This document shows, piece after piece, positions 23,747-51,376 of a stretch of DNA of 64,000 bases. This DNA comes from an uncultured Actinomycetes bacterium. GTDB taxonomy: Bacteria; Actinomycetota; UBA4738; HRBIN12. Made by a program: the position numbers and the translations under genes. Each line of letters opens with the position of its first letter. Position 1 is the stretch's first letter. The notes under the pieces were generated by a model. It did no database searches, was not told the DNA's origin, and worked only from the letters and a program-made list of their open reading frames with translations. The stretch spans positions 43,159 through 107,158 of the forward strand of contig CAZHRY010000001.1 of NCBI GenBank assembly GCA_964535065.1. The letters run 5' to 3'.

Positions 23747-24115
23747 ATGGCGATGGCCGTCGACGGGGTGGCGCTAGCACTCTTCGTCGTGACCGGCTCG
23801 CGCTTCCACCAGGACGCCACCCCGCTGGCGGTCTTCCTGAGGAATGCCGTGCCGTTCGGCGGCGCGTGGCTGTTCTTCTCTGCGATCCTCGGCACCTACC
23901 GGCCCGTGAGCTGGGGCGGGTTGCTCAAGACGTGGGCCGCCGTGGTGCCCATGGGCTTGATCCTGAGGGCGGTTTGGATGGGTGCGCCTCTCGGGCCCTG
24001 GAACAGATCATTCGTCATCGCTGCGGCGGGATTCACGCTCGCGTTCCTGGTCGGGGGACGGCTGCTGCTGTCGGTGGGGATCCGTAGGCGACCTTCCAGC
24101 GGGAGGCAAGGATGA
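23747..24115 (+). CDS. DUF3054-family small membrane protein
   Basis: MAMAVDGVALALFVVTGSRFHQD... with 3-4 transmembrane helices. Its stop overlaps the next ATG (ATGA). Confidence 0.55.
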   Translation: MAMAVDGVALALFVVTGSRFHQDATPLAVFLRNAVPFGGAWLFFSAILGTYRPVSWGGLLKTWAAVVPMGLILRAVWMGAPLGPWNRSFVIAAAGFTLAFLVGGRLLLSVGIRRRPSSGRQG

Positions 24116-25563
24116 CGCCGAAGATACCGTCCCCGGGCGCGGCCCGGAGCTTCTGGCTACAAGAGGCCCTGGCGCACGATCCAGGCGACCCCTGCCCTCC
24201 CTTGAACTCTCACGTCAAGGCGGACGTGTGCATCGTCGGGGGAGGATTCGCCGGACTCTGGACGGCCGTCGAGCTGACGCAGCGGGAGCCGGGTCTGCGC
24301 GTCGTGTTGCTGGAGCAGGACATAGTGGGAGGGGGAGCCAGCGGACGCAACGGCGGGTTCATGTCGTCCTCGTGGTGGGACCTCTCGGGGCTGACGGGGC
24401 TGTACGGCGACGAAGAGGGGCTCCGGTACGCGACCGTCCTGGCGGATGCCGTCGGTGAGGCCGGGAGCTGGATCGAGGCCAGCGGCATCGACTGTTGGTT
24501 CCACCACGAGGGAGTGGTCGGAGCGCTCACGGGGGAGTGGCAGAAGTCGATCGGCCACGGCTCAGACCCCTTCTGGCATTGCGAGAGGCTCGGCGTGCCG
24601 GACCGCATGGTGCGTCTCTCGGCAGAGGAAACGCGTGCCTACGCGGATTCGCCGAGGTTCGTGGGGGGCTCGTTCATCCGTGACAGCGCCATCTGCCAGC
24701 CGGCGCGACTGGCGAGGGGGATGCGCCGAGTTCTCCTGGAGCGGAACGTCAGGATCTTCGAAGGGACCAAGGCCGCCGGCGTGGAGGACGTGCGTGGAGC
24801 CGCCGTGATCCGGACCGGGGAGGGGGCGGTCAAGGCCGATCAGGCCGTACTGACGGCCGGCTCATGGGCTGCCGAGTGGCCGGCCTTCCGCAGGAGCTTC
24901 GTCGTCGTGGCCGACTACGTGGTTGCGACCGAGCCGATCCCCGAGAAGCTCGAGCGGATCGGCTGGACCAGCGGCGTCGGCATAGGGGACGGCCGCGAGT
25001 GGCTCTACTACCTCCGGCCCACCGATGACGGCCGGATCGTGATCGGCGGCGGGACGGGCCGGGTGGCCTTCGGGAACCGGGCGGGGGCTCGTTCGATGAC
25101 GCACGTCGAGCGGGTGGCCAAGGTGGCGGCGGAGGGCCTGCTGTGGATGTTCCCGCAGCTCGAGGGGACGAGGTTGACGCACGCCTGGGGCGGGCCGATG
25201 GACATGAGCGCGACGCTCGTGCCTTTCTACCGGAGCCTGGCGCCGGGCAACGTGCACGCGGGTCTGGGGTTCAGCGGCCACGGCTTGACCCAGACGATGG
25301 TCGGCGGGCGGATCTTGGCCTCGAAGGTCCTGGGGGTGAAGGACCGGTGGACGCAGCTCGCCGTCAACCGTCCTGAACTGGCGAAGGTGCCGCCGGAGCC
25401 GTTCAGGTGGCCTGCGCTGGAGCTGTCGGCTCGGGCGCTGCGGATGGGCGATGTCAGGGAGGAAGCGGGGCGGCCGCGCGGGCGCCTGCTGGAGATGATC
25501 GGGAGCGCTCCCCTGGCGTACCGTGAGCGACTCATGGGGCGCCCGCGCGGCCGCCCTCAGTAG
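24112..25563 (+). CDS. FAD-dependent oxidoreductase (DAO family; PuuB / gamma-glutamylputrescine oxidase-like)
   Basis: Dinucleotide-binding motif CIVGGGFAGLWTAVEL. 483 aa. Confidence 0.75.
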   Translation: MTPKIPSPGAARSFWLQEALAHDPGDPCPPLNSHVKADVCIVGGGFAGLWTAVELTQREPGLRVVLLEQDIVGGGASGRNGGFMSSSWWDLSGLTGLYGDEEGLRYATVLADAVGEAGSWIEASGIDCWFHHEGVVGALTGEWQKSIGHGSDPFWHCERLGVPDRMVRLSAEETRAYADSPRFVGGSFIRDSAICQPARLARGMRRVLLERNVRIFEGTKAAGVEDVRGAAVIRTGEGAVKADQAVLTAGSWAAEWPAFRRSFVVVADYVVATEPIPEKLERIGWTSGVGIGDGREWLYYLRPTDDGRIVIGGGTGRVAFGNRAGARSMTHVERVAKVAAEGLLWMFPQLEGTRLTHAWGGPMDMSATLVPFYRSLAPGNVHAGLGFSGHGLTQTMVGGRILASKVLGVKDRWTQLAVNRPELAKVPPEPFRWPALELSARALRMGDVREEAGRPRGRLLEMIGSAPLAYRERLMGRPRGRPQ

Positions 25564-25568
25564 CTGCC

Positions 25569-26698: not shown

Positions 26699-27505
26699 AT
26701 GGTAGAGGCGTTCACGACTTCTCTCGCACCCGACGCGCTGGCACACAAGGTCGCGCTCGTGACCGGCGGCGGGACGGGGATCGGACGGGCCACCGCCACG
26801 CAGATCGTGGCAGCGGGTGGCCAGGTGGCCATCTGCGGGCGACGTCGCGAGCCGCTCGAGGAGACCGCCGCAGAGCTCGGCGACACATGCTTCGCGCTTC
26901 CGTGCGACGTGAGAGAGCAGGAACAGGTGACGGCGATGCTGGACGCCGTTCAGGAGCGCTTCGGCAGGGTCGACGTGCTCGTGAACAACGCGGGCGGTCA
27001 GTTCGCCGCTCCCCTCCAACAGGTGTCACTGAAGGGCCTTAGAGCCGTCCACCGACTCAACGTGGACGCGGTTTGGAACGTAACGCAACAGGTGGCTGGC
27101 CGGTGGTTCATCCCGCAGCGCTCCGGGCTCGTCGTCTTCGTGGGGTTCAGCCCGCGCCGCGGGATCCCGCTGATGGTGCACTCGTCCATGGCGAGGTCTG
27201 CTCTGGAGACCCTCGCAGCGGGCATCGCCCTCGAGTGGTCCAGGTACGGCATCCGCGCGGTGTGCGTGGCGTGCGGTTTGATCGACACGGAGGGGCTCCG
27301 CCAGTACGGAGGACCGGAGCTGCTTCAGGAGTACGCCTCACAGGTTCCCATGAAGAGGGCCGGGACACCGCACGAGGTGGGCGCCGTGATCGCCTTCCTC
27401 GCGACCCCTGATGCCGAATACATCACGGGAACCACGGTCGTGATCGACGGCGGTTCCGATGCGTGGGGTCTGGGCTTCATGCCTCCGGACCTCGAGCCGG
27501 ACTGA
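26699..27505 (+). CDS. SDR family oxidoreductase
   Basis: VALVTGGGTGIGRATA (TGxxxGxG), NNAG, and catalytic Ser...YxxxK context. Start at the internal ATG MVEAF; no Shine-Dalgarno sequence, so probably leaderless. Confidence 0.8.
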   Translation: MVEAFTTSLAPDALAHKVALVTGGGTGIGRATATQIVAAGGQVAICGRRREPLEETAAELGDTCFALPCDVREQEQVTAMLDAVQERFGRVDVLVNNAGGQFAAPLQQVSLKGLRAVHRLNVDAVWNVTQQVAGRWFIPQRSGLVVFVGFSPRRGIPLMVHSSMARSALETLAAGIALEWSRYGIRAVCVACGLIDTEGLRQYGGPELLQEYASQVPMKRAGTPHEVGAVIAFLATPDAEYITGTTVVIDGGSDAWGLGFMPPDLEPD

Positions 27506-27583
27506 TACCGGCCCCGGGGGTTCCAGTATCGCGCGTGGCGGCGTAGGCTGTTCCTGGGGAACGATCATATGAGGGGGGATGCT

Positions 27584-27868
27584 ATGTACGGCACGTGCGC
27601 GCGTACGCGGGTGAAGCCCGAGAACCGCGACCAGCTGGTGAAGGTGTTCGAGAGCCAGTCGTACGACACGCAGGTGAAGGGCTTCGTGAAGTCCTACGTC
27701 CTGTTCGAAGACGGCTCCGACGCTGCATGGATGTTCGCCGTGTTCACGGACAAGGAGTCCTACGACGCCAACGCCCATGACCCGAAGCAGCATGAGCGCT
27801 ACATGGAGTACCGGGCCCTGCTCGAAGAAGAGCCTGAGTGGCACGACGGTGAGATAACCGAGGGCTGA
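27584..27868 (+). CDS. small antibiotic-biosynthesis-monooxygenase (ABM)-like / stress-responsive alpha-beta barrel protein
   Basis: MYGTCARTRVKPENRDQLVKVFESQ...VKSYVLFEDGSD... 94 aa with protein-like composition. GAGGGGGGA ribosome-binding site 5 nt upstream. Confidence 0.5.
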   Translation: MYGTCARTRVKPENRDQLVKVFESQSYDTQVKGFVKSYVLFEDGSDAAWMFAVFTDKESYDANAHDPKQHERYMEYRALLEEEPEWHDGEITEG

Positions 27869-28006: not shown

Positions 28007-29458
28007 ATGGTGGAAGTGCTGCAGAACTACATAGACGGGAAGTGGGTCGACGCGCTGGACGGCTCCCGTTTCGACGTCTTCAACCCGGGCACGGGCGAGG
28101 TCATCGCCACGGCCCCGGCGTGCAAGGCGGAGGACGCCGACGTGGCGGTCGCGGCTGCTCGTCGCGCGTTCGACGAGGGCTTCTGGTACCCGGGCACCGA
28201 TGAGCGCGAGCGCGGCCGGATCCTGCTGCGAGCCGCCGAGATCGTGATGCGTGAGCACGAGCGGCTGTCACGGCTGGAGTCGATGGACAACGGCAAGCCG
28301 ATCAACGAGGCGCGCGAGGACATCCGCGAGGTTGCCTTCATGTTCGAGTACTACGGCGGCTGGGCCACCAAGTACGCGGGCGAGGTGCAGACCTCCGGGC
28401 GCGACGCGATGCACATGATCCTGCGCGAGCCGGTCGGCGTGGTGGCCGCCATCCCGCCGTGGAACTACCCGCTCATGATGGCGAGCCAGAAGATCGCGCC
28501 GGCCCTGGCCGCGGGCTGCACGGTGGTGCTGAAGCCCGCCTCCTACACGCCTCTCACGGCCATCGAGTTGGCCAAGATCCTGGAAGAGGCAGGCGTGCCG
28601 CAGGGCGTATTCAACGTGATCACCGGCGGCGGCTCCACTGTCGGCGGTCACATGGTCAAGCATCCCGCCGTGGACAAGATCAGCCTCACCGGGTCCACCG
28701 AGGTGGGCAAGTGGGTCATGCGCGAGGGCGCAGAGACGATGAAGCGCGTGTCGCTCGAGCTGGGCGGCAAGTCGCCGAACATCGTGTTCGCCGACGCGGA
28801 CTTCGACTCGGCTGTCCTCGGATCGTGCAACGGGATCTTCTGGAACCAGGGTGAGATCTGCTCGGCGGGCAGCCGCGTCCTGGTCGAGAAGAGCATCTAC
28901 GACGATGCGCTTCAGGCGATGTCCGATCGCGCGGCCAGCATCAAGGTCGGCGATCAGCTCCAGGAAGACACCGAGATGGGTCCGATCGTCAGCGCCGACC
29001 AGAAGAAGGTCATCGACGACTACGTCACGATCGGCAAGGGCGAGGCCCGCTTGGCGGCCGAGGGACAGGTCCCGTCGGACCCGGCGCTGGCCGGCGGATA
29101 CTGGGTGCCCCCGACGATCTTCGCCGACGTGAACAACGATATGACGATCGCCCGCGAGGAGATCTTCGGGCCGGTCATGGCGGTCATCCCGTTCGACGGG
29201 GTCGAAGAGGCGATCAAGATCGCCAACGACAGTCCATACGGCCTGGCCGCGGCCATCTGGACGAAAGACATCAAGAAGGCGATCAACACGACGAGAGCGC
29301 TGCGGGCGGGGATCGTCTGGATCAACGACACGCAGCCCGCTCCCACGGAGATGCCCTGGGGCGGCTACAAGCAGTCCGGCATCGGCCGCGAGCTCGGGAA
29401 GCACGGCATGGACGACTTCCTCGAGGACAAGGCGGTCTACATCAACCTGTCGGAGTAG
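28007..29458 (+). CDS. NAD(P)-dependent aldehyde dehydrogenase (e.g. aminobutyraldehyde/betaine-aldehyde dehydrogenase-like)
   Basis: ALDH family motifs ELGGKSP, catalytic NQGEICSAGSR (Cys), and PWNYP. TAGGAGGGGA ribosome-binding site 7 nt upstream of the ATG. Confidence 0.9.
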   Translation: MVEVLQNYIDGKWVDALDGSRFDVFNPGTGEVIATAPACKAEDADVAVAAARRAFDEGFWYPGTDERERGRILLRAAEIVMREHERLSRLESMDNGKPINEAREDIREVAFMFEYYGGWATKYAGEVQTSGRDAMHMILREPVGVVAAIPPWNYPLMMASQKIAPALAAGCTVVLKPASYTPLTAIELAKILEEAGVPQGVFNVITGGGSTVGGHMVKHPAVDKISLTGSTEVGKWVMREGAETMKRVSLELGGKSPNIVFADADFDSAVLGSCNGIFWNQGEICSAGSRVLVEKSIYDDALQAMSDRAASIKVGDQLQEDTEMGPIVSADQKKVIDDYVTIGKGEARLAAEGQVPSDPALAGGYWVPPTIFADVNNDMTIAREEIFGPVMAVIPFDGVEEAIKIANDSPYGLAAAIWTKDIKKAINTTRALRAGIVWINDTQPAPTEMPWGGYKQSGIGRELGKHGMDDFLEDKAVYINLSE

Positions 29459-30763: not shown

Positions 30764-31885
30764 ATGGCGGGCGGAGAGGTTCAACTGGTAGATCTCACGA
30801 AGCGCTTCGGCGATTTCACCGCGGTCGATGGACTGAGCCTGCAGATGCCCCCCGGCGAGTTCTTCTCCCTCTTGGGACCCTCTGGATGCGGGAAGACGAC
30901 CACCCTGCGCATGATCGCGGGGTTCGAGAGGCCGACCGAAGGCCAGATCCTGCTGGACGGGGCCGACATGGCCCAGACCCCTCCCCACAAGCGAAACGTC
31001 AACACCGTCTTCCAGAACTACGCCCTCTTCCCGCACCTGAACGTCGAGAAGAACGTGGCGTTCGGCCTGAAGTACAAGGGTGTTTCTAAGACGGAGGAAC
31101 GGGAGAGGGTCGGCCGGGCGCTTGAGCTGGTGCGGTTGACGGGGTTCGAGTCGCGCCGGCCCAACCAGCTTTCCGGAGGCCAGCAGCAGCGCGTCGCGCT
31201 TGCTCGCGCCCTGATCCTGAACCCGGCGGTCCTGCTCCTGGACGAGCCACTAGGTGCCCTGGACGCGAAGCTCCGTAAGGCCCTGCAGATCGAGCTGAAG
31301 GCGATCCAGGAGGAGGTCGGGATCACGTTCATCTACGTGACCCACGACCAGGAAGAGGCGCTGACGATGTCCGACCGTATCGCGGTCATGTCCAACGGTC
31401 GGGTGGAGCAGGTCGGGCCTCCCAAGGAGGTCTACGAGGAGCCCGCGACGGCCTACGTGGCCGACTTCCTCGGTGTGTCCAACCTCATGGACGCCGAGGC
31501 CGACGGCCCAGGCCCGCAGGGCTGCAAGGTCCGCCTCGGTGAGTTCGAACTCGTCGGGGGCCGCGGCGAGCCCGACGCGCGCGGGTCCGTGAAGCTCTCC
31601 ATCCGTCCCGAGAGGGTCGTCCTCGGTCAACCCGGCGAAACGGGCCAGAACCGTGTGCCCGGCATGGTGGAGAGGCTGGTCTACGTCGGGTCGGTCATGC
31701 ACGTCCTGGTCAACCTGGCTTCGGGCGACAAGATCCAGGTGTTCGTTCAGAACGAGGGCGAGGCTCTCAGCTACGCCTCCGGGACCGCCGTCAGCGTTCA
31801 CTTCCCGGTGGACGCCCTCCGTGTGCTGCCTCAGGGCGAGGTCTCGGCCGAGGGGTTCGCCGCAGCGGCCGCCGCGGTCGAGTAG
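30764..31885 (+). CDS. ABC transporter ATP-binding protein, PotA-like (spermidine/putrescine import)
   Basis: Walker [11 protein letters not shown]-loop, [15 protein letters not shown] signature, Walker B LLLDEP, and a C-terminal TOBE-like domain. Start at MAGGEV. Confidence 0.85.
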
Positions 31886-31916
31886 CTCTGCCGGCGGCGC
31901 TTCCCGGCACCGCCTG

Positions 31917-32822
31917 TCAGATCTCCAGGCGTGCGAAGTCCTCTACCGCCGACCGATCCCCCTCCTGCTTCTTGATGAAGACCTTCTGGATGGTGATAGA
32001 GGCCGCGATGGCCAGGAGGGACAGTGCCATCATGATCGTGGCCAGAGCGTTCAGGCTGGGGGACCCCGCGTTGCGCGCCGCTGAGTAGATCTTGATCGGG
32101 ATGGTCGTGCATCCCTCGACGCACAGGTAGCGACTTATGACGAAGTCGTCGATCGAGATGGCGAAGACGATGAACATGCTTGCGAACACCGCCGGCGCCA
32201 GCAGTGGCAGCAGTACCCGGCGGATGGCAGACGCCGACGAGGCCCCGAGGTCCATCGCGGCCTCTTCGTACTCACGCCCTATGGCGAACAGACGTCCCCT
32301 CGTGACGATCACGACGTACGAGATCGAGAACGTGACGTGGCCGACGACCTGCGCTTCTGTGCCCAGCGGGATCCACGAGTACAGGTTCACGAAGATGAAG
32401 AACAGCGAGACACCCATCACGATCTCGGGCGTGACCAGTGGGAAGAGCATCAGGAAGTTGGCGGCGCCCGAACCCCTTCCGCGCCACCTCGCCAGCCCCA
32501 ACGCGAGACCGACCCCCAGGATCGTCGCGATCGGCATCGTGAAGAAGGCCAACTTCAGGCTCTGCATCAGGGCCGGCAGCAGCGTCTCGTCGTAGTTCTC
32601 CGAGCCCCTGACGAAGATGCCCTCCCACCACTGGAGCGAGAACCCCTGGAACGAACTTCGCGAGCGCCCAGCGTTGAACGAGAACTGGACCGCGATCAGC
32701 ACCGGCACGATGGACCAGGCCACGTAGGCCCACGTGAAGACCTTCAGGAAGCGCGGCTTGGACCACGGGTTGGCGAACCAGGCACGGAGCCGTCCGCGGG
32801 GGGCCGGGAGGGTCGTACTCAC
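31917..32822 (-). CDS. ABC transporter permease (PotC-like)
   Basis: GTG start overlaps the upstream permease stop (GTGA). 301 aa with 6 transmembrane segments and an EAA-like loop YEEAAMDLGAS. The 586-aa ORF-track version is a frame run-on. Confidence 0.8.
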   Translation of the reverse strand: MSTTLPAPRGRLRAWFANPWSKPRFLKVFTWAYVAWSIVPVLIAVQFSFNAGRSRSSFQGFSLQWWEGIFVRGSENYDETLLPALMQSLKLAFFTMPIATILGVGLALGLARWRGRGSGAANFLMLFPLVTPEIVMGVSLFFIFVNLYSWIPLGTEAQVVGHVTFSISYVVIVTRGRLFAIGREYEEAAMDLGASSASAIRRVLLPLLAPAVFASMFIVFAISIDDFVISRYLCVEGCTTIPIKIYSAARNAGSPSLNALATIMMALSLLAIAASITIQKVFIKKQEGDRSAVEDFARLEI

Positions 32823-33751: not shown

Positions 33752-33782
33752 GGCGCTCCTGGCTCCTCCTTCCGTCTCACAA

Positions 33783-33817
33783 GGTAAGGTCCCGCCCCTG
33801 CGGGGCGGGACCTTACC
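33783..33817 (-). promoter_or_regulatory. intercistronic perfect hairpin (16-bp stem, 3-nt loop) between the substrate-binding protein gene and the permease genes
   Basis: ggtaaggtcccgcccc-tgc-ggggcgggaccttacc in the 96-bp gap between the substrate-binding protein stop (33848) and the PotB-like start (33751). Palindromic, so present in the minus-strand mRNA. Confidence 0.6.
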
Positions 33818-33847
33818 ACCCTGTCACTCGCGTTCGTTAGGTCCGAG

Positions 33848-36861: not shown

Positions 36862-36864
36862 GCC

Positions 36865-41264: not shown

Positions 41265-42685
41265 GCGAACCGTGGCAGCTGACGGCGGCTGAGGCTCTGC
41301 GCCAGATGCGCGCGAAGCAACTCTCGCCGGTAGAGCTTCTCGACAGCGTCATCGAGCGGGCGGAGGTGGCGGAGCCCGTCGTGAACGCCCTGTGCGAGCG
41401 TCGGTACGGCGAAGCACGCGATGCCGCGAAGGGGTCGGAGCGCAGGTACCAGGCCGGCGAGAGGATCCGTCCGCTCGAGGGCATCCCGGTAGGCCTGAAG
41501 GAAGAGGTGCCCGTGCGCGGCTGGACCATGAGGTATGGCTCCCTCGCCATGAACGAGAAGGCTGACGCGACGGCACCGATCGCCGAGCGGCTCTTGAAAG
41601 CGGGCGCCGTGGTTCACGCCAGGACCACCACCCCGGAGCTGTCGTGCGCCGGCTTCACGCATTCGAAGCTCTGGGGTGTGACGAGGAACCCATGGAACAC
41701 GTCGGTCGCCGTCGGCGGGTCCAGTGGGGGTTCGGGAGCGTCCCTCGCGTCCGGCACCTCGCTGCTCGCTAGCGGTTCGGACATCGGAGGTTCCATCCGG
41801 CTTCCCGCTTCGATGAACGGGGTGGTCGGGTTCAAGCCGCCTCACGGCCGGGTGCCGACCTATCCGCCCTTCAACCTCGACCGCTACTGCCACGACGGCC
41901 CCATGGCTCGCACGGTCGAAGACTGCGCGCTGTTCCAGAACGTGATCGCTGGACCCCATCCCATCGATGTGGCCTCGCTGAGGCCGAGGCTCCGCGTCCC
42001 CCTCGAGCCCAAGGGGATCGAGGGGTGGAGGATCGCGGTGTGCACCGACCTGGGCGCTTGGAAGGTAGAGGAGGAGGTCGTGGCCAATACGCTGGCGGCG
42101 GCCGACGCCCTCAGCCAGGCGGGGGCCGTCGTCGAAGAGGTGAGCCTTCCGTGGGACCTCGAGGAGATCATGGGCGTCGGCCGCCGCCACTTCGCAGCGA
42201 TCTTCGGGGCGCAGATCGCCGACCTCGTCCATCGAGTCCCGGACCTCGTTTGCGACTACGTGGCGGCCTGGGCTGAAGAGGCGGAGCTAGTGGCCGGCGA
42301 ACCGGGCTCGTTCCTGATCGGGCTCGAGGGAGAGCAGCGGATATGGGAGCCGTTGTCACGGATCCTCCGCCGGTACCGGGCTCTCATCGCCCCGACGTGG
42401 GCGACCATCGGCATCCCGGCCGGCGACAGCTTCCTCGGCAAGATCTTCCCGAGCGGCGGTCCGCTCGACGCCCAGTTCCAAGTCATGATGACGACGCCGT
42501 TCAACATCCTGTCCCCCTGTCCCGTGCTCGCCGTACCGTCGGGGAGGGCTTCGAACGGTGTTCCCACCGGAGTCCAGATCGTGGGACGCACGTACAGCGA
42601 CGTCGACGTGTTCCGCGTGGGCGCGGCCCTCGAGCGGGTGCGTCCCTGGCCGGTGAATGCTCCGGAAGGCCTCCCGGCTATCTGA
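41261..42685 (+). CDS. amidase (amidase-signature family)
   Basis: Amidase signature GGSSGGSGASLASGTSLLASGSDIGGSIRLPA. TTG start overlaps the upstream stop (TTGA). Confidence 0.8.
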   Translation: MSEPWQLTAAEALRQMRAKQLSPVELLDSVIERAEVAEPVVNALCERRYGEARDAAKGSERRYQAGERIRPLEGIPVGLKEEVPVRGWTMRYGSLAMNEKADATAPIAERLLKAGAVVHARTTTPELSCAGFTHSKLWGVTRNPWNTSVAVGGSSGGSGASLASGTSLLASGSDIGGSIRLPASMNGVVGFKPPHGRVPTYPPFNLDRYCHDGPMARTVEDCALFQNVIAGPHPIDVASLRPRLRVPLEPKGIEGWRIAVCTDLGAWKVEEEVVANTLAAADALSQAGAVVEEVSLPWDLEEIMGVGRRHFAAIFGAQIADLVHRVPDLVCDYVAAWAEEAELVAGEPGSFLIGLEGEQRIWEPLSRILRRYRALIAPTWATIGIPAGDSFLGKIFPSGGPLDAQFQVMMTTPFNILSPCPVLAVPSGRASNGVPTGVQIVGRTYSDVDVFRVGAALERVRPWPVNAPEGLPAI

Positions 42686-43598
42686 CAGCGGCCGCGAGCG
42701 CGGAGATGTCGTCGGGGGTCGTGCCGCAGCAGCCGCCGACCAGCATCGCGCCTGCGGAGCGCCAAGCGGGAGCCAGCGCACCGAAGTCGGGCCGGGGGCC
42801 GCCGTCGGCACGCCAGACCTTCCGATCCGCGTCCCATGTAGAGCCGAGATTGGGGTAAGCGACCAGCGGCTTCGTCACCCCCGCCCGACCAGCGCTTCCT
42901 AGCAGGTCGGGGACGAAGGCGGGCGGTGAGCAGTTGACGCCGACGGCTGCCACCCGGTCGCTCGAGGCCGCCAGCGTGGCCGCTTCTGCGAAGGAAGTGC
43001 CGTCGCTGATGCTGGCACCGTCGCGGCAGCTGAAGCTCACCCAGGCGATCGCCTCCGGATAGGCATCCAGCAACTCGACCAATGCTTCGGCCTCTTCCCT
43101 GGCGGGGATCGTTTCGATCGCCAGCAGGTCCGGTTCGGCGCTCAGCAGCACCTCCAGGCGTGGCCGGTGGAAGTCGATCAGGTCCTGTACCGAGAGTCCG
43201 TACCTGCCTCGATACTCCGACCCGTCGGCGAGCATGGCGCCGTAGGGGCCCACCGAGGCCGCCACCAGGTGGCCGGGCCCTGCCTCTTCGGCGGCTTCTC
43301 GGGCCAGCCGGACGCTCAGCCGGAGCAGTTCCTCGGCGCGTGAGCGGTCTGTACCCCGCGAAGCGAAGCCCTCGAACGAGGCCTGGTAGCTCGCGGAGAT
43401 GACCACATCCGCCCCGGCCCCGAAGTAGTCGGCGTGTACCGCTCGTATCGACCCCGGGTCGTCCAGCAGCAGCCGAGCCGACCAGAGGGCGTCCCGGAGG
43501 TCTTGGCCGCGCGCCTCGAGCTCCGACGCGAGCCCCCCATCCAGCACGAGCCCGCCTCGCATCCGTTCGCGCACGTCCATGAACCGAACCATACCCAA
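42678..43598 (-). CDS. mmuM: homocysteine S-methyltransferase
   Basis: LDGGLASELE, DVVISASYQAS and GGCCGTTP (Zn-binding Cys) are collinear with MmuM. Overlaps the amidase 3' end by 8 nt (convergent). Confidence 0.8.
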   Translation of the reverse strand: MGMVRFMDVRERMRGGLVLDGGLASELEARGQDLRDALWSARLLLDDPGSIRAVHADYFGAGADVVISASYQASFEGFASRGTDRSRAEELLRLSVRLAREAAEEAGPGHLVAASVGPYGAMLADGSEYRGRYGLSVQDLIDFHRPRLEVLLSAEPDLLAIETIPAREEAEALVELLDAYPEAIAWVSFSCRDGASISDGTSFAEAATLAASSDRVAAVGVNCSPPAFVPDLLGSAGRAGVTKPLVAYPNLGSTWDADRKVWRADGGPRPDFGALAPAWRSAGAMLVGGCCGTTPDDISALAAAVR

Positions 43599-43651
43599 CT
43601 CACGGCCGGGGTTCGGGCCGCCGTATGCTCCGGCGCCGGAGGTGACCGACC

Positions 43652-44830
43652 GTGACGACGTATCCGCTGAGCGAGGAAGACCGCGCGATCCAAGAGCGCG
43701 CTCGCAGGTTCGTGAACGAGGAGCTGATCCCCTGGGAGGAACATGCCGAGGAGCACGATGGCCGGATCCCCGACGAGGTGCGCCTCAAGCACAGGCGGAT
43801 GGCCGAGGAGCTGGGCCTTTCTGCGATGAACATGCCGAAGGAGCTGGGCGGGCAGGGGATGACCACCCTGCAGCAGGTTCTGGTTTCGGAGCAGATGGGC
43901 AGGGTGACGAACGCCCTGGGTTGGTGCATGTACACACCGCCCGAGTGGGCGCCGGAGGTCGTGTCCCCGATGCAGCTGGAACGTTGGATCATCCCGGCCA
44001 TCAAGGGCGAGCGGGCCGAGTGCTACGCGATCACCGAGGCCGGCGCAGGCTCGGACGTGGACGCGATCCAGGCGACCGCACGCCGCGACGCAGACGAGTA
44101 CGTGCTGAACGGCACGAAGATGCACGTGACCTCGTACAACCGGGCCGACTTCATCTTCTTCCAGGCCAAGATCGTGGGCGGCCCGAGCGCCGGCGCCCAC
44201 GCGATGTTCTTCGTCGATAAGGACACCCCAGGTGTGAGGCTCGTGCGCGAACCCAGATACACGCACACCTTCCCCGATTCGCACGCGGTCGTGGCCTTCG
44301 AGGACGTTCGCGTACCGGCGGACCATCTCATCGGTGAAGAGGGCGACGGCTTGGCTTTCACGTACGCGTGGTTCCGGTACGAACGCATGATGATCGCCGC
44401 TCGCTGCTGTGGCGCCGCCGAGCGACTGATCGACGAGGCCACCGCCTTCGCGCGCGAGCGTATCCAGTTCGGCAGGCCGATCGTCGAGTTCCAGGCGATC
44501 GCGCACATGCTGGCCGACTCCCTTACGGAGCTGTGGGCAGCGCGGCTCATGACCTACCGGCTCGCGGAGAACATCGACGCGGGTGTGGACGTGAAGATCC
44601 AGCACGCGCAGTGCTCGATGGCCAAGCTCTACGCGAGCGAGATGGCGGGCCGGGTGGCCGACCGGGCGGTCCAGATCTTCGGGGGCAGGGGCTACATGCG
44701 GGAGAACGTCGCGGAGCGCTTCTGGCGCGAGGTGAGGGTCGACCGGATCTGGGAGGGCACGAGCGAAGTCCAGCGGAACATCATCGCGGACCAGCTCGTG
44801 AAGCGGGGAACCCGGACGCTGACGGGATGA
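43652..44830 (+). CDS. acyl-CoA dehydrogenase
   Basis: ACAD N/M/C domains (YAITEAGAGSD, FGGRGYMRE, and IWEGTSEVQR containing the catalytic-base region). GTG start. Confidence 0.85.
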   Translation: MTTYPLSEEDRAIQERARRFVNEELIPWEEHAEEHDGRIPDEVRLKHRRMAEELGLSAMNMPKELGGQGMTTLQQVLVSEQMGRVTNALGWCMYTPPEWAPEVVSPMQLERWIIPAIKGERAECYAITEAGAGSDVDAIQATARRDADEYVLNGTKMHVTSYNRADFIFFQAKIVGGPSAGAHAMFFVDKDTPGVRLVREPRYTHTFPDSHAVVAFEDVRVPADHLIGEEGDGLAFTYAWFRYERMMIAARCCGAAERLIDEATAFARERIQFGRPIVEFQAIAHMLADSLTELWAARLMTYRLAENIDAGVDVKIQHAQCSMAKLYASEMAGRVADRAVQIFGGRGYMRENVAERFWREVRVDRIWEGTSEVQRNIIADQLVKRGTRTLTG

Positions 44831-45928
44831 TCAGTCCTGACGGAGGATCGCCGCGTCCTCACGCATCCAGCTGAGAACTACCGGGTCGCCCTCTCGCACC
44901 TGCGACACCGAAGCGTCGGATAGCTCATGCACGATGAGCCGCTTGCCCATGTCCGTGTCCACGTGGAACTGGGTCAGGGTGCCCAGGTAGACGACCTGAG
45001 CGACCTTCCCGGACACACGGCTGGGATGCTCCAGCTGCTCGGCATCGGCGGGTCTCAGCCAGATGCGCTCGGGTCTGACGGTCACCGTGAGGGTCGAGCC
45101 CGCCGACGCGCCCGTCGATGCGATCGGAACGACTATCCGCTCTCTATCACCGAGTCGCATGACGGCGTCCGGACCCGACACCTCGTCCACGCGGAAGTCG
45201 ATCGCGTTCAACACGCCGACGAAATCGGCGACGAAGGGCGTTTCGGGGAAGTCGTAGATATCGCGAGGGGTCCCCAGCTGCTCGATCCGGCCCTGATTCA
45301 TCACCGCTATCCGGTCCGACATGGACAGGGCTTCTTCCTGGTCGTGGGTCACATAGACGAAGGTGGTTCCCAGCTCGTGCTGGATGCGCTTCAGCTCCAG
45401 CTGCATGGCCTTGCGCAGCTTCACGTCCAGGGCGCCGAGCGGCTCGTCCAGCAGGAGCGCCGCCGGCCGGTTGACCAGGGCCCGGGCTAGAGCCACGCGC
45501 TGCTGCTGGCCGCCAGACAACTGTGCCGGCTTGCGCGCACCCATCCCGGCAAGCCCCACGATCTCGAGCATCTCTGCAACGCGGGCGTCCCGCTCTGCCT
45601 TCGGAACCTTCTTCAGCTTGAGGCCATACGCGATGTTCTTCTCCACCGTCATGTGAGGGAAGAGCGCGTAGTGCTGGAAGCACATGTTCACCTCACGCTT
45701 GTTGGGCGGCACACCCACGACGTCCGCTCCGCGGAGGAGGATCGCGCCCCGGTCGGGCTCCTCGAAGCCCGCGATCATCCGCATGGTCGTCGTCTTGCCG
45801 CAACCGGAAGGCCCAAGCAAGGTGATGAACTCCCCTTCGGCGATCTCCAACGACACGTCGAGAACGGCACGGACGTCGCCGAACGACTTGCTGACATCGC
45901 GGATGCTTATCGCAGACCCTTCGTTCAT
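44831..45928 (-). CDS. ABC transporter ATP-binding protein, PotA-like
   Basis: [30 protein letters not shown] and a C-terminal TOBE domain. The ATG overlaps the upstream permease stop (ATGA). The ORF-track 651-aa version is a frame run-on. Confidence 0.85.
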
Positions 45929-46824
45929 CCATCCCCTCCTGCGCCTGCAACAGGCGTGAGTTCCGTGTCTTCGAATACCTCGCGCACTCCCTCGCCAAGC
46001 GTCCTGGCCGACCTGACCCACAAGACTTCGGTGAGAATGACGGCGATCGAGGACACGACCAGCACCACCACCGCCACCGCCGGCATCTGGGGCAGCTGTC
46101 TGGGCAGTCGCAACTGGGAGTAGATGTACAGGGGAAACGTGGTCGTCTGTCCTGCTACGAACGAGGCCAGGACTATCTCGTCGAACGAGATCACGTAGCT
46201 CAGGACGAACGACGAGACCACGGCGGGTGCGAGCAGGGGGAACGTGACCGACCGGAACGCGACCCACCATCCGGCACCTAAGTCGCGGGCCGCCTCTTCC
46301 AGCGCGACAGGGATCCGCTCGAGGCGCGGGATGATCGTCAGGACGGCGAACGGCAGGGCTATGACCACGTGCGCGATGATGAGTGTGATCGCCCCGAACT
46401 CGAACGGGATGCCTGCGGGCTCTAGGACGTAGACCTTGACGTAGTTGAACAGGATCAGCATCGCCGTTCCCAGGACGACCAGCGGGACGACCAGAGGTGC
46501 GAGCAGGAAGCCTGATGCGAGGCCCTTGCCGAAGAAGCGTCTCCGCTGCATCGCGATGGACGCGGGGATGGCGAGCGTCGTCGTGATGACACTGGCTATA
46601 GCCGCTATCCAAGCGCTGGTCTTCAAGGCGTTCATCAGCTCGCTGTTGTGGATGAACTCGGAATACCAGCGGGTGGTGAAGCCCTCCCACGGGAACGAGA
46701 CGAACTCCCTGTCGTTGAAGCTGAAGATCATCAGGATCAGGAGCGGTGCATACAGGAACAAGACGAGGATCCAGAAAACGATCCAAAGACCTGCCTTGCC
46801 ACCTCTGGATGCGGCCATGTTCAT
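45925..46824 (-). CDS. ABC transporter permease (PotC-like)
   Basis: 299 aa, 6 transmembrane segments, EAA loop LEEAARDLGAGWW. Confidence 0.8.
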   Translation of the reverse strand: MNMAASRGGKAGLWIVFWILVLFLYAPLLILMIFSFNDREFVSFPWEGFTTRWYSEFIHNSELMNALKTSAWIAAIASVITTTLAIPASIAMQRRRFFGKGLASGFLLAPLVVPLVVLGTAMLILFNYVKVYVLEPAGIPFEFGAITLIIAHVVIALPFAVLTIIPRLERIPVALEEAARDLGAGWWVAFRSVTFPLLAPAVVSSFVLSYVISFDEIVLASFVAGQTTTFPLYIYSQLRLPRQLPQMPAVAVVVLVVSSIAVILTEVLWVRSARTLGEGVREVFEDTELTPVAGAGGDG

Positions 46825-47741
46825 GCCGCCACGCTCCTGACGTTCAGGTAGCGGCCGAAAACCGCTAGCAGGATCGCTACGGCGAACACCAGGAACATCG
46901 CCATCGCCGAGCCGAACTGCCAGTCCAGCCCGAAGGTGAAGGCGCTCTGGATCGCGCTGCCGAACATGAAGCCCTTGGGTCCTCCCACGAGCTGTGGTGT
47001 GACGAACTCACCGATCGTCGGGATGAACACGAAGATGAACCCGGCGATCGCACCCGGGATCGACAGGGGGAACGTGATCGACCAGAAGGTACGCAGACGA
47101 GAGGCGCCCAGGTCCGAGCTGGCCTCAAGCAGCCTGACATCCATGCCCTCCAGCGCAACGAAGATAGGCAGAGCGACGAACGGCACCCACACGTAGCTGA
47201 GCACCACGTAGATGGCGAACTGGCTGTTGAAGAGCCATGAGATGGGTTGGTCCAGGACTCCCAGAGTGTCGACGAGGAACGTGTTGATGACGCCCTGCGG
47301 GTTGAGCAGGACACGCCATGCGAGGATCCTGAGCAGGTAGCTGGTCAGGAACGGAACCATGAGCACCAGGAGCAAGGTGTACTTGCGTGCCCCCGCAAGC
47401 AGGGCGAGCAGATAGGCGATGGGGTACGCGAGGATGAGGGTCGTGAAGGAGACGATCAGGGACATGCGAACCGACTTCCAGAACAGGCCCTTGCCGAGGA
47501 CGTGGAAGCCGCCCATGTACGTGTCGGAGAACAGGAAGTCCTTCCACGGCGTCACGGTCCACTCGGAGATGTCGTTGGGTGAGAGCCCCGAGACCCCGCC
47601 GACGCTGTAGACGGCTATCAGCACGACCGGAACCACGAAGAACCGACCTACCCAGCCGAGGGGTGCTGCGCGGATGGTCCTGGTGGCGGCGGCGCCCTTC
47701 GGACGCCGCCGCCGCACTCCGGTCACGTCGGTCGTGGTCAT
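46821..47741 (-). CDS. ABC transporter permease (PotB-like)
   Basis: 306 aa, 6 transmembrane segments, EAA loop LEASSDLGASRLRTFWSITFP. Confidence 0.8.
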   Translation of the reverse strand: MTTTDVTGVRRRRPKGAAATRTIRAAPLGWVGRFFVVPVVLIAVYSVGGVSGLSPNDISEWTVTPWKDFLFSDTYMGGFHVLGKGLFWKSVRMSLIVSFTTLILAYPIAYLLALLAGARKYTLLLVLMVPFLTSYLLRILAWRVLLNPQGVINTFLVDTLGVLDQPISWLFNSQFAIYVVLSYVWVPFVALPIFVALEGMDVRLLEASSDLGASRLRTFWSITFPLSIPGAIAGFIFVFIPTIGEFVTPQLVGGPKGFMFGSAIQSAFTFGLDWQFGSAMAMFLVFAVAILLAVFGRYLNVRSVAA

Positions 47742-48893
47742 CTAGCCGATCGACGCCTTCACCTCGTCCCAGGCTCGGTTGTACTTGTCGCGCTCAGGCT
47801 GATACCGGTCGAAATAGCTCGCCGGTTCGGCGAGGTTCGTCTCGGGGTCATCGAGGCCGAACACTTCGACGACCTCAGGATCGATGGCATCCAGGTCGAT
47901 GTTGGTGTTCGCATGCCCGTAGCCCCACGAACTCACCAACCGCTGGCCCACCTCCACGCTTGCCCAGGCGTCCGCGAACTCGTGCGCGTGGTAGTAGTTC
48001 TCCGTCTCGGACCTGAGCACCAGCCCCTCTGCCCATGAGAGGACCCCCTCCTTGGGCCTGCTGTAGTGCACGGGCACGTCTTCCTTCAGGACCACGAACG
48101 CATCCGGCCAGGCGTAGGTCGCCCACAGGTTCCCCTGGCGCACGTCATCCCACATCTGGGTGAAATCCACCCAGATGGAGTAGACGTTCTTCGCCTTCGA
48201 GATGCAGTAGTTCTTCGCCTCTTCCAGCTCCTCGTCCGTCATGAAGAACGTCTGATCTCCGGCGATGCCGAGGGTCAGCGCCGCCATCTGGATCACCCAG
48301 GGAGTGTCGAACCAACCGATGTGTCCCGCGTTGGCGTCATCGAAGATGTAGGAGTATGAGTTGATGCTTGGATCCACGTGGTCGCTGCGGATCAGCACAC
48401 CCGAATAGCCCCAGTCGGTGACGATCTCGTACTGGTCTTCGCCGATCCGTCCGTGCTGCTCCAGCACATCCGTGAGTTGAGAGAAGTTGGGGATCAGCGA
48501 AGTGTCCCAGGGCTGCAAGGCCCTCATGTTCACGTAGTCCTGGATGTATCCGGTCTCGGGGTGAGTGATGTCCCACTCGAAACCCCCTTGGGTCTTCGCG
48601 ATGACCCCCTCGGTGTTCGTGAGGAAGGAGAACTTGGGGTCCGGATACCCCTTCTCGGCGTACTGCTTCCAGATCCACTTGGCCTCATAGCCCGACCACT
48701 CGTGGATGGCGAGCACACCCGGCTCTTCCTCGATCGGCGGTCGCTGGGTCGTTGTCGTGCCGCCTCCAGGCGAAGTCGCGGTGGTCTCCTTCCGGCACGC
48801 CGCCAGCACACCCATCCCGCCTACCGCGGCCATGCCCTTCAGGAACTGCCTGCGGCTCGCGGCGTTGCTTAGCACCGCATCGAATTGACCCAT
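47742..48893 (-). CDS. polyamine-type ABC substrate-binding protein (PotD/PotF-like)
   Basis: Start at MGQFDAV... with the Tat-like signal SRRQFLKGMAAVGGMGVLAAC (lipobox) and an AGGAGGG ribosome-binding site. The ORF-track N-terminal extension is rejected. Confidence 0.8.
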   Translation of the reverse strand: MGQFDAVLSNAASRRQFLKGMAAVGGMGVLAACRKETTATSPGGGTTTTQRPPIEEEPGVLAIHEWSGYEAKWIWKQYAEKGYPDPKFSFLTNTEGVIAKTQGGFEWDITHPETGYIQDYVNMRALQPWDTSLIPNFSQLTDVLEQHGRIGEDQYEIVTDWGYSGVLIRSDHVDPSINSYSYIFDDANAGHIGWFDTPWVIQMAALTLGIAGDQTFFMTDEELEEAKNYCISKAKNVYSIWVDFTQMWDDVRQGNLWATYAWPDAFVVLKEDVPVHYSRPKEGVLSWAEGLVLRSETENYYHAHEFADAWASVEVGQRLVSSWGYGHANTNIDLDAIDPEVVEVFGLDDPETNLAEPASYFDRYQPERDKYNRAWDEVKASIG

Positions 48894-49004
48894 GGGATCT
48901 CCCTCCTCCTGCTCCCCCGTCGCCCCTCGACCCGCGGATGATGTCGTGCTAGCTCGGGTTGTGCAAGCCGAGTTGCGCTGGACGGTACCTGGGAACATCT
49001 GAGC

Positions 49005-50264
49005 ATGACCGACTTCTGGCACCCATTCGCTGACATGGCGTCGATCGAGGCTGGCGGTGAACTGACGGTCTCGCGCGGTGAGGGCAGCCACATCTGGGAC
49101 TCGGATGGACGGCGCTACCTGGATGCGACCGCCGGGCTCTGGTACTGCAACGTGGGTCACGGGCGGGTCGAGATAGCCGACGCGGTTAGCAGGCAGCTGA
49201 CCGAGCTCGAGGCCTACTCCTGCTTCCAGGACCTGACGAATCCGCCGACCGCCGCTCTGGCCGAACGGGTGGCGGCGCTCGCGCCGGTTCCCGGGTCGAA
49301 GGTGTTCTTCACCAGCGGTGGCTCGGACTCGATCGACACCGCCACCAAGATCGTGCTGAGGCACTGGTCCCTGGTCGGCGAGCCGCAGAGGACCGTGCTC
49401 ATCCGGAGGGAGCGCGCCTACCACGGCATGCACACGGCCGGGACGTCGCTCGCGGGCATCCCGGCCAACCTGGAGGGGTATGGAGGCCTGCTCCGCGACG
49501 TGGTGGAGGTGCCCTGGGACGACGCGGAGGCGCTTCGCGAGGCGATCGAACGGATCGGGCCGGACAGGGTCGCCGCCTTCTTCTGCGAACCGGTCATCGG
49601 GGCGGGTGGGGTGTTCCCGCCGCCGGATGGCTACCTGGAAGCGGCGCGGCTGGTGTGTCGCGAGACGGGCGCGCTGTTCATCGCCGATGAGGTCATCACC
49701 GGGTTCGGCCGGTGCGGTGAGTGGTTCGCCAGTTCCAGGTGGAACCTGGAGCCCGACCTGATCACATGCGCGAAGGGCATCACCAGCGGGTACCTACCCC
49801 TGGGAGCCGTGATAGCCGCGCCGCGGGTGTGGGAGCCTTTCTGGAAGAAGGAGGCCGGCATGTTCCGCCACGGCTACACCTACACCGGGCACGCCGCCGT
49901 CTCGGCGGCCGCGTTGGCCAACCTCGACATCATCGAACACGAAGGACTGCTCGAACGCGCCGGGCAGCTTGAAAGGGAGCTTGCGGCGGCCCTGGCGCCG
50001 CTGGAGCGGAAGGCCCTGGTGAGCGAGGTTCGCCGTGGAACCGGCGTCCTGGCGGCGGTGCAGGTCGATGGGGACGCGCTGGCCGCCGACCCTTCCCTGC
50101 TGGGTCGCGTGGTGCCTGCGTGCCGAAGGAACGGCGTTATGACCAGGATCCTTGCGACCGGAGCGATCCAGGTGTCGCCCCCTCTGATCCTGGACGGCGA
50201 AGGCCTGGATGAGCTGGCCGGGGGCCTGGAGGCGGCCATCGACGAGATGGAGGCGGGGTCGTGA
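49005..50264 (+). CDS. class III (omega) aminotransferase, putrescine--pyruvate aminotransferase SpuC-like
   Basis: WHPFADMASIEAGGELTVSRGEGSHIWDSDGRRYLDATAGLWYCNVGHGR and IADEVITGFGRCGEWF...CAKGITSGYLPLGAV (PLP Lys) are collinear with P. aeruginosa SpuC. Confidence 0.85.
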   Translation: MTDFWHPFADMASIEAGGELTVSRGEGSHIWDSDGRRYLDATAGLWYCNVGHGRVEIADAVSRQLTELEAYSCFQDLTNPPTAALAERVAALAPVPGSKVFFTSGGSDSIDTATKIVLRHWSLVGEPQRTVLIRRERAYHGMHTAGTSLAGIPANLEGYGGLLRDVVEVPWDDAEALREAIERIGPDRVAAFFCEPVIGAGGVFPPPDGYLEAARLVCRETGALFIADEVITGFGRCGEWFASSRWNLEPDLITCAKGITSGYLPLGAVIAAPRVWEPFWKKEAGMFRHGYTYTGHAAVSAAALANLDIIEHEGLLERAGQLERELAAALAPLERKALVSEVRRGTGVLAAVQVDGDALAADPSLLGRVVPACRRNGVMTRILATGAIQVSPPLILDGEGLDELAGGLEAAIDEMEAGS

Positions 50265-51376
50265 TCGTAGGTATACCCACCGAGGTCAAGAACCACGAGT
50301 ACCGGGTGGCCGCCACACCGGAGGGTGTGCGGGAGCTGGTTCACGCGGGTCACAGGGTTGTGGTCGAGGCAGGGGCCGGGCTTGGCTCCGCCATCACCGA
50401 CGAGCAGTACGCGGCTGCCGGTGCCGAGGTCCTGCCGGATGCGGACTCGGTGTTCGCTGCCGCTGAGCTGATCGTGAAGGTGAAGGAACCGCAGGCGGAA
50501 GAGTACGAGCGGTTCCGTTCCGACCACATCTTGTTCACCTATCTGCATCTGGCTGCCGACGAGGGCTTGACCAAGTTCCTCGTGGAACGCGGTCTCCGCG
50601 CAGTGGCCTACGAGACGGTGCAGACGCCGGACGGGCACCTGCCGCTCCTGGCGCCCATGTCCGAGATCGCGGGTCGTATGGCTCCCCAGGTCGGCGCCAA
50701 GGCCTTGGAGAAGCCGCAGGGCGGCCGCGGCGTCTTGATGGGGGGAGCATCGGGCGTGCTCCCCGCCAAGGTGGTCGTGCTCGGTGGCGGCATGGCCGGC
50801 TGGAACGCCGCCGAGATCGCAGCGGGCATGCAGGCTGAGGTCGTCGTCGTGGACAAGAACGTGGACCGGCTGCGTGAGATAGACCGGATCTGGCACGGGC
50901 GGATCCAGACGGTCATGTCGTCTCGCCTTGCCATCGAGCACCTCGTGCTCGGCGCGGACCTGGTGATCGGTGCCGTGCTGGTTCCCGGCGCCCGGGCGCC
51001 CCACCTGGTGACGGAGGACACGGTCAAGGCGATGCGCCCGGGCGCCGTCTTGGTCGACATCTCGATCGACCAGGGGGGCTGCTTCGAGACCTCGCACGTG
51101 ACCATGCACGCGGACCCCACCTACGTGCTGCACGATGTCGTCCACTACTGCGTCGGGAACATGCCCGGCGCGGTGCCGCGGACCTCCACATATGCGCTGA
51201 CCAACGTGACCCTTCCCTACGTCGCAGCGATCGCCGGGAAGGGGCTCGAGGGCGCCGTTCGCTCGGATCCTGCCCTCTCCTTGGGTGTGAACGTCTGGGA
51301 CGGGCGGGTGACGAACGCTGGGGTGGCCGAGGCTACGGGCCTCGAGGCCTCGGAGCTGGCCGAGGTATTGACTTAG
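50261..51376 (+). CDS. ald: alanine dehydrogenase
   Basis: [23 protein letters not shown]... almost collinear with the M. tuberculosis Ald N-terminus. NAD motif [13 protein letters not shown] start overlaps the spuC-like stop (GTGA). Confidence 0.9.

Follow-up and report, generated by a model that had tools for sequence, protein, structure and literature searches.

Does a stretch of about 27 kb that carries two spermidine/putrescine-type ATP-binding cassette (ABC) importers form one island for polyamine uptake and catabolism, or is the functional unit within it a smaller one? The question is raised by positions 24112-51376 of a 64,000-nucleotide piece (the window) of contig CAZHRY010000001.1 from an uncultured Actinomycetes bacterium, for which a preliminary description had proposed such an island together with a complete route from putrescine to gamma-aminobutyrate (GABA). 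Our analysis favors, with somewhat better than even confidence, a conserved amine uptake-and-deamination module of ~6.5 kb, consisting of importer 2 (44831-48893) and the divergently oriented genes of an aminotransferase (AT) and an alanine dehydrogenase (Ald). Genes were called by a GC3 frame criterion and proteins were identified with Pfam and NCBIfam; every gene named in the preliminary description was recovered at the position assigned to it there, so that its observation was confirmed in large part, and its interpretation in part. Loci with relatives of AT and of the substrate-binding proteins (SBPs) of both importers, SBP1 and SBP2, were collected, and the window proteins were mapped onto them by tblastn. 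The proposed module comprises the following features:

44831-45928, minus strand: ATPase 2, PotA subfamily with TOBE domain (Pfam ABC_tran and TOBE_2; TIGR01187 potA)
45925-46824, minus strand: permease 2B, PotC/PotI-like (Pfam BPD_transp_1; PotC 174 bits, PotI 147 bits, below cut-offs)
46821-47741, minus strand: permease 2A, PotB/PotH-like (Pfam BPD_transp_1; PotB 174 bits, PotH 161 bits, below cut-offs)
47742-48893, minus strand: SBP2, lipoprotein of PotD/PotF fold exported by twin-arginine translocation (Tat), 383 aa (Pfam SBP_bac_8 and TAT_signal)
48894-49004, no strand: divergent intergenic region between SBP2 and AT, 111 nt, presumed control region
49005-50264, plus strand: AT, short class-III pyruvate-type omega-aminotransferase, 419 aa (Pfam Aminotran_3, 259 bits)
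50261-51376, plus strand: NAD-dependent L-alanine dehydrogenase Ald (TIGR00518, full length)

The case for a functional unit starts with the AT-Ald pair. Ald passes the alaDH equivalog model TIGR00518 over its full length (519.7 bits versus a cut-off of 391.85), and the TGA stop codon of AT overlaps the GTG start codon of Ald as GTGA (50261-50264); of the coupling claimed in the preliminary description, the overlap itself stood, whereas its spelling there as "GVTA" is a typing error. Ald lies directly downstream of AT in 11 distinct loci with AT identities of 62–100% (the window, L084/85, L086, L087, L088, L089, L090, L091, L001, L093, and L171), where the two genes either overlap by 4 nt or have just a few nt between them, and this across at least four different gene contexts. 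Depending on the locus, the pair is preceded by an SBP2-type importer, by a third importer type, directly by an acyl-CoA dehydrogenase gene or by a DUF6282 gene, and it is followed by a Phd/PIN toxin-antitoxin pair, a DinB-like gene, an aldehyde dehydrogenase (ALDH) gene or CO-dehydrogenase-like genes. Near distant AT homologues (<50% identity), Ald was found in 0 of 147 loci within a flank of up to 10 kb. Because the coupling is kept in the 11 close loci and in none of the distant ones, it is a conserved, clade-specific trait and no chance adjacency. These co-occurrence counts rest on ~17 close AT loci, as a metagenome scan by exact peptide patterns yields few close relatives. Ald is absent in an AT sub-clade at 67–70% identity as well as in L002 and L006, and in L086, which stems from a long-read metagenome-assembled genome (MAG), the Ald gene behind AT is split into two frames (11263-12367), which could reflect an assembly frameshift or a pseudogene. 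A pyruvate/alanine shuttle of omega-aminotransferase and Ald, as originally suggested, is the best reading of an overlapping pair kept through many rearrangements.

The association of the pair with an importer is likewise seen in the relatives. In the window lineage, and likewise in L171 (SBP identity 63%), AT-Ald has an SBP2-type importer as its divergent neighbor; in L086 and L094, such an importer lies near AT. In L001, L090, and L091, the slot between the acyl-CoA dehydrogenase gene and AT-Ald is occupied by a non-orthologous set of one SBP and two permeases. The SBP of this third type reaches 125 bits to SpuE (3TTL), keeps the equivalents of PotD Glu171, the PotF-type WSGD, and FWxD (as FWHD), and is, among the three SBP types, the one that best represents a canonical polyamine binder. 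This third Pot-type system (L001, L090 at 4884-7902, and L091) is an operon of a Tat lipoprotein SBP and two permeases without an ATPase gene, for which there is also no space between permease and acyl-CoA dehydrogenase. Since one Pot-family importer is swapped for a non-orthologous other at the same position, this arrangement argues for a functional link between importer and AT-Ald and points to a polyamine-like substrate. The proposed association of an importer with AT-Ald was thereby strengthened, as Pot-family importers of two non-orthologous kinds adjoin the pair; within the 27 kb, this is the only association shown to exceed chance. In addition, an ALDH gene directly follows Ald in L088, lies beside AT in L086 and L002, and, in L169 and L170, adjoins SBP2 orthologues where AT-Ald would otherwise stand, placements that fit a conversion of amine to aldehyde to acid. 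Distant AT homologues, too, often have genes for ALDH and Pot-type ABC proteins around them.

Several observations weigh against such a unit, beginning with its linkage. The close AT relatives L002–L006 and L092 have neither Ald nor an importer, L087 and L088 carry AT-Ald without an adjoining importer, and the search for a regulator, promoter or riboswitch of importer 2 and AT-Ald identified none: the 111-nt intergenic region revealed neither a sigma-70-like site nor an Rfam RNA family, and no riboswitch was detected. Moreover, all comparison loci come from one lineage of related uncultured Actinomycetota, so that common descent rather than selection may account for part of the synteny. Taken to its end, this would mean that importers, AT, and Ald are functionally unlinked, with Ald as a housekeeping enzyme and AT in another role, e.g., in biosynthetic amination, which is possible as the pair is reversible. 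The order of DinB, PfkB, nucleoside hydrolase, and TetR genes, conserved without obvious functional tie, is in line with such an account. Nevertheless, we consider it improbable: the close spacing of AT and Ald is retained in rearranged contexts, a non-orthologous importer has taken over the same position, ALDH genes were recruited beside the pair in several loci, and the pairing does not occur at the distant homologues. Importer 2 and AT-Ald probably represent a real amine-catabolism module.

Importer 2 itself is a single compact minus-strand operon whose genes either adjoin directly or have 4 nt in common, the latter being the case for permease 2B with both neighbor genes. SBP2 starts with the Tat motif SRRQFLK and a LAAC lipobox (TAT_signal 23.9 bits versus the Pfam cut-off of 22.7), and ATPase 2 passes the PotA subfamily model TIGR01187 (389.7 bits versus 355.6), while both importer ATPases stay below the cut-offs of the PotA and PotG equivalog models. 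For the permeases of both importers, PotB/H and PotC/I models are best with 157–176 bits, i.e., about half of the equivalog cut-offs, in comparison to at most 104 bits for permease models of molybdenum, sulfate, aminoethylphosphonate, and thiamine systems. With the domains and motifs read in this way, two complete Pot-type importers, each featuring a Tat/lipobox SBP, two permeases, and an ATPase, were borne out as initially described.

Which compound would be taken up depends on the SBPs. Their solved sequence relatives are polyamine binders only (PotD, PotF, SpuD, and SpuE type; 49 bits for SBP2, 103 bits for SBP1), and comparison of the families with the E. coli PotD profile by hhalign gave probabilities of 97.7 (SBP2) and 99.5 (SBP1). 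The AlphaFold2 model of SBP2 has a pLDDT of 82.9 and is confident over the folded domain; that of SBP1 reaches 85.0. In Foldseek searches against the PDB, the top ~30 matches of both models are PotD, PotF, SpuD, SpuE, and VcPotD1, joined by YdcS for SBP2, with E-values of 1e-19 to 1e-26; PotD, YdcS, VcPotD1, and PotF lead the list for SBP2, and the top 30 of SBP1 are all polyamine binders. Opine and GABA binders trail the polyamine binders by 3–4 orders of magnitude in E-value in the SBP2 search, and no thiamine, Fe3+ or aminoethylphosphonate binder was near the top for either SBP. By structure, both proteins therefore stand with the polyamine binders and not with those of thiamine, Fe3+ or aminoethylphosphonate, the outcome that would have spoken against the preliminary description.

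The ligand site of SBP2 gives a less uniform picture. With contact residues numbered after PotD, the SBP2 family retains all five aromatic residues and the equivalents of D167/168 and of D257 (as Glu). The acids kept in SBP2 numbering are Glu113, Asp196, Asp264, and Glu289, and the family has an invariant Glu at the position of PotD Ser83. Further points against the module as a polyamine system are found here: SBP2 reaches only 46.6 bits on the PotD hidden Markov model (HMM; cut-off 582) and does not match that of PotF (cut-off 636), an invariant Gly68 stands at the position of PotD Glu36, and a nearly invariant Trp199 at that of PotD Glu171 and PotF Glu185. According to the mutagenesis literature on PotD and PotF, these acidic residues are key contacts for the amino groups of the ligand. 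Alignments of SBP2 based on PotD and on PotF disagree locally around W257/W262/D264, and according to the PotF-based one, Asp264 may act as a stand-in for PotF Asp247. Owing to this local conflict, the ligand of SBP2 is not callable from contact residues, or from sequence in general. Polyamine specificity is thus far putative for the importers, above all for SBP2.

The same architecture could consequently serve a substrate other than a polyamine, such as an omega-amino acid (beta-alanine, GABA or 5-aminovalerate), a monoamine or alkylamine, or another terminal amine, with SBP2 representing a new specificity class of the PotD fold. We regard this as possible, yet clearly less probable than the module with a di- or polyamine-like ligand. 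It is in line with the missing glutamates at the site where aromatic box and acids are kept, and the PotD fold also accommodates the GABA and opine binders seen among the lower Foldseek matches of SBP2. An acyl-CoA dehydrogenase gene, furthermore, always flanks the SBP2-type importers. Against it speak the lead of the polyamine binders among the structural matches, the canonical SpuE/PotD-type binder of the importer in the same slot of the sister loci, and the local ambiguity of the alignments, in which Asp264 might fill the role of PotF Asp247.

For AT, bit scores in a PDB search were used as a rough proxy for kinship with characterized transaminases. The best matches are TR2 (306 bits), an amine transaminase (299 bits), and HEWT of Halomonas (293 bits), followed by SpuC of Pseudomonas putida (6HX9, 274 bits), a polyamine:pyruvate transaminase (9J4Z, 273 bits), and the Chromobacterium violaceum transaminase (267 bits), whereas beta-alanine:pyruvate enzymes (~230 bits) and a taurine:2-oxoglutarate aminotransferase (164 bits) lie further away. 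On sequence grounds, AT belongs among the pyruvate-using omega-transaminases. It is ~35–45 residues shorter than every solved omega-transaminase matched, starting ~15 residues further in and showing an internal gap of ~15–20 residues around residues 150–175; lengths of 415–421 aa are typical of its clade. A specific orthology to SpuC, after which AT had been labeled in the preliminary description, could not be supported: SpuC scores below the best omega-transaminase, all NCBIfam matches stay below their cut-offs (best 372.6 versus 510), and near-identical homologues are named BioA, PatA or SpuC in their source annotations. Two more points count against a polyamine module. At ~35% identity, AT lies about as far from SpuC as from many other pyruvate-dependent omega-transaminases, and the SpuC paralogues of P. 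putida act on nearly all polyamines and omega-amino acids tested (bioRxiv 10.1101/2021.12.09.472016). Given this promiscuity, SpuC-level similarity cannot fix the substrate of AT, and a non-polyamine substrate likewise draws support from these paralogues and from omega-amino-acid:pyruvate transaminases among the solved AT relatives.

A further candidate is a taurine or hypotaurine module, in which AT would act as a Tpa-like taurine:pyruvate aminotransferase together with Ald, as in Bilophila and Rhodococcus. In Bilophila wadsworthia and other taurine degraders, Tpa is clustered with an Ald that regenerates the amino acceptor (PMC6386719), so that pairing and logic match those of AT-Ald, and AT is a class-III enzyme like Tpa. 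This reading is nonetheless very improbable here, as no Xsc, isethionate enzymes or TauABC-type transporter were present among the scanned window proteins, the adjoining importers are Pot-type with a taurine ATPase model far weaker than the PotA subfamily model, and the taurine:2-oxoglutarate aminotransferase is a distant relative (164 bits versus 306 bits for the best omega-transaminase).

In the amine uptake-and-deamination module, SBP2, permeases 2A and 2B, and ATPase 2 would import a primary amine, most likely di- or polyamine-like. AT would then pass the terminal amino group to pyruvate, giving an aldehyde and L-alanine, and the translationally coupled Ald would regenerate pyruvate by oxidizing L-alanine, with NH4+ and NADH as further products. 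In sum, amine + NAD+ + H2O would give aldehyde + NH4+ + NADH with pyruvate as a catalytic compound, and the Ald step would build in a pull on the transaminase equilibrium. The aldehyde could be oxidized by an ALDH encoded elsewhere in the genome, which in relatives is adjacent to the pair. Our data show the identities of the genes, the overlap of AT and Ald, the conservation of the linkage, and the fold of the SBPs; the direction of flux, a co-regulation of the two divergent units, and the type of substrate are inferred.

A bolder version can be put forward only tentatively. The SBP2-type family, which comprises about 300 clusters at 90% identity, might be a new specificity class of PotD-fold binders that imports a non-canonical amine, with AT-Ald as a dedicated, self-regenerating cassette restricted to uncultured soil Actinomycetota. 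If so, the cassette would in effect be a two-protein, NAD-dependent amine dehydrogenase, and the nearly invariant Trp of SBP2 would replace the amine clamp formed by Glu171/Glu185.

Importer 1 (30764-35179) consists of the following genes:

30764-31885, plus strand: ATPase 1, PotA subfamily (TIGR01187, 371.6 bits versus a cut-off of 355.6)
31917-32822, minus strand: permease 1B, PotC/PotI-like (best NCBIfam match below cut-off)
32819-33751, minus strand: permease 1A, PotB/PotH-like (best NCBIfam match below cut-off)
33848-35179, minus strand: SBP1, Tat lipoprotein, PotD-like, 443 aa (Pfam SBP_bac_8 and SBP_bac_1)

SBP1 features an RRDFLK twin-arginine motif and a LAAC lipobox and carries extensions of ~40 aa at the N-terminus and ~70 aa at the C-terminus. 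Like SBP2, it remains below the cut-offs of the PotD (85.7 bits versus 582) and PotF (62.8 bits versus 636) HMMs; of the contact residues, it retains W34, Y37, D168, E171, W229, D257, Y293, and the PotF-type D247, while W255 and E36 are lost. ATPase 1 is encoded on the plus strand, convergent to the operon of SBP1 and the two permeases and divergent from a major facilitator superfamily (MFS) transporter gene, and this split layout is kept in L172 and L173 (SBP identity 65–72%). As regards the claim of two paralogous systems, both are Pot-type, but their paralogy is merely ancient, with identities of 24.5% over 151 aa for the SBPs, 31–34% for the permeases, and 53% for the ATPases. In relatives, the neighborhood of importer 1 does not adjoin importer 2. 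Importer 1 is a PotD-like system apart from importer 2, conserved independently and set among neighbors of its own.

The two oxidative enzymes that had been assigned to the island are located further upstream, namely:

24112-25563, plus strand: DAO-family FAD oxidoreductase (Pfam DAO)
26699-27505: short-chain dehydrogenase/reductase (SDR), first gene of an SDR-ABM-ALDH run
27569-27868: ABM protein, second gene of this run
28007-29458, plus strand: ALDH, third and last gene of this run (Pfam Aldedh)

The ALDH had been described as standing alone; it closes a conserved run, whose SDR-ABM-ALDH order is the same in L172 and L173. Its best NCBIfam model is that of BADH (567 bits versus a cut-off of 669), compared to 430 bits versus 850 for PuuC, no equivalog cut-off is reached, and among solved structures it comes closest to betaine-aldehyde and generic ALDHs. 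The complete putrescine-to-GABA route could not be maintained, as this distant ALDH belongs to another conserved operon, and neither GabT nor GabD was found among the window proteins scanned with Pfam and NCBIfam. The same scan gave no PuuA (glutamine-synthetase-like) or PuuD, which, together with a best model of Phn_aa_oxid (putative aminophosphonate oxidoreductase; 320 bits versus a cut-off of 633), leaves the "PuuB-like" label of the DAO protein unsupported. The latter had no PDB match at E ≤ 1e-10, and its gene is missing from the corresponding neighborhood in L172.

More than half of the 27 kb (~60%) consists of unrelated genes, i.e., those for MFS, DUF4190, enoyl-CoA hydratase, ADP-forming acyl-CoA synthetase, EamA, CysK-like, amidase, homocysteine S-methyltransferase, and acyl-CoA dehydrogenase proteins. 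The GC content is flat across the window (0.63–0.70 in 2-kb bins), no integrase, mobility gene or tRNA was detected in the region, and the flanking gene order is shared with relatives, in which the two importer neighborhoods lie apart. The region is ordinary chromosome, and the idea of one coherent island of 27 kb was abandoned. Proteins identical to the window AT, SBP2, and Ald are present on soil metagenome contigs, and the closest relatives in genome collections are MAGs labeled Actinomycetota, Actinomycetes or Thermoleophilaceae. The MMPL and mycothiol-type DinB genes of the window are consistent with Actinomycetota.

Further genes recur beside the module or occur elsewhere in the window. 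A CysK-like pyridoxal phosphate enzyme, which with 333 bits narrowly misses the cysK cut-off of 351, forms a block with an amidase and an acyl-CoA dehydrogenase (window 40236-44830; also L087, L169, and L170). This conserved block adjoins SBP2-type importers or AT-Ald, often together with an IclR regulator in the order IclR, CysK-like enzyme, amidase, and acyl-CoA dehydrogenase; in the window, a genuine homocysteine S-methyltransferase gene (42678-43598) is inserted into it. For the acyl-CoA dehydrogenase, enoyl-CoA hydratase, acyl-CoA synthetase, SDR, and amidase proteins, NCBIfam gave generic matches below cut-off and no subfamily. After Ald and before the DinB-like gene, the window lineage and L084/85 have genes for a Phd/YefM antitoxin (51405-51668 in the window) and for a toxin with a PIN domain (51665-52054); as they are absent at that position in L087 and L171, the pair looks like an inserted toxin-antitoxin cassette. 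The DinB/MDMPI-like gene (window 52108-52551; L087, L169, L170, and L171) recurs after Ald or its ALDH replacement, and this member of a mycothiol-dependent enzyme family could be a conserved extra component.

Two genes for ADP-forming (NDP-forming) acyl-CoA synthetases (36865-38970 and about 57014-59113) have genes of CoA-ester enzymes nearby, i.e., an enoyl-CoA hydratase (within 36034-38970) and an acyl-CoA dehydrogenase (59546-60841). A BetI-type TetR gene (54499-55128) is divergent from that of a CrtO/CrtI-like flavoprotein (55347-56969). A lysine route via 5-aminovalerate to glutaryl-CoA, with this conserved FAD protein as a DavB-like lysine/arginine 2-monooxygenase and the amidase, acyl-CoA dehydrogenase, enoyl-CoA hydratase, and acyl-CoA synthetase as further enzymes, was considered and rejected, since NCBIfam assigns the flavoprotein to the CrtO/CrtI family. 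Two large PAS-GGDEF-EAL proteins, one of them also with a GAF domain, are encoded at 6287-8611 and 12853-15042, and between them genes for a transketolase-like protein (8615-10540), a member of the phosphoribulokinase/uridine-kinase family (10663-11631), and a DEAD-box helicase.

If the amine uptake-and-deamination module is correctly read, abundant uncultured soil Actinomycetota would take nitrogen from imported amines by means of a Pot-type importer, a shortened omega-transaminase, and a coupled Ald. This would differ from the textbook routes of Pseudomonas and E. coli, in which alanine is handled via DadAX or 2-oxoglutarate serves as acceptor, and it does not overturn current understanding. 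A natural pair of transaminase and alanine dehydrogenase and a truncated omega-transaminase scaffold are also of possible interest for biocatalysis, and the PotD-fold SBP2 family with its altered ligand clamp has a specificity worth measuring. A literature search returned no description of a SpuC-Ald or putrescine-Ald operon.

Among known systems, the SpuC pathway of Pseudomonas with SpuDEFGH and PotFGHI shares the PotD/PotF-fold SBP, two permeases, and PotA-type ATPase as well as a class-III, pyruvate-dependent omega-aminotransferase that gives aldehyde and alanine, with an ALDH expected next. The window SBPs, however, lie far under the PotD and PotF HMM cut-offs, and AT, at ~35% identity and with ~35–45 residues less, resembles SpuC no more than it does other omega-transaminases. 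Pseudomonas recycles alanine by the DadA/DadX route, in contrast to the NAD-dependent product of an overlapping Ald gene in the window. Alanine catabolism through DadA has been described (bioRxiv 10.1101/2021.12.09.472016). PotABCD, PotFGHI, and YdcSTUV of E. coli have the same four-component design, and it is the structures of PotD, PotF, and YdcS that the SBP models match best. Unlike these systems, the window SBPs are Tat lipoproteins, SBP1 is extended at both ends, SBP2 lacks the equivalents of Glu36 and Glu171, and the gene of ATPase 1 lies on the opposite strand, convergent to those of its partners.

With the Tpa-Ald clusters, the window shares an amine:pyruvate aminotransferase gene kept with Ald. 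It differs in having no taurine-specific enzymes or transporter, in its polyamine-type importers, in the order of AT followed by Ald with overlapping stop and start codons, and in its soil Actinomycetota lineage. Engineered cascades of omega-transaminase and alanine dehydrogenase in biocatalysis employ the same enzyme pair with the same cofactor logic, whereas the pair described here is natural, chromosomal, overlapping, and presumably deaminating. Altogether, the module of this uncultured soil lineage is a modest variation of what is known from SpuC and Tpa-Ald.

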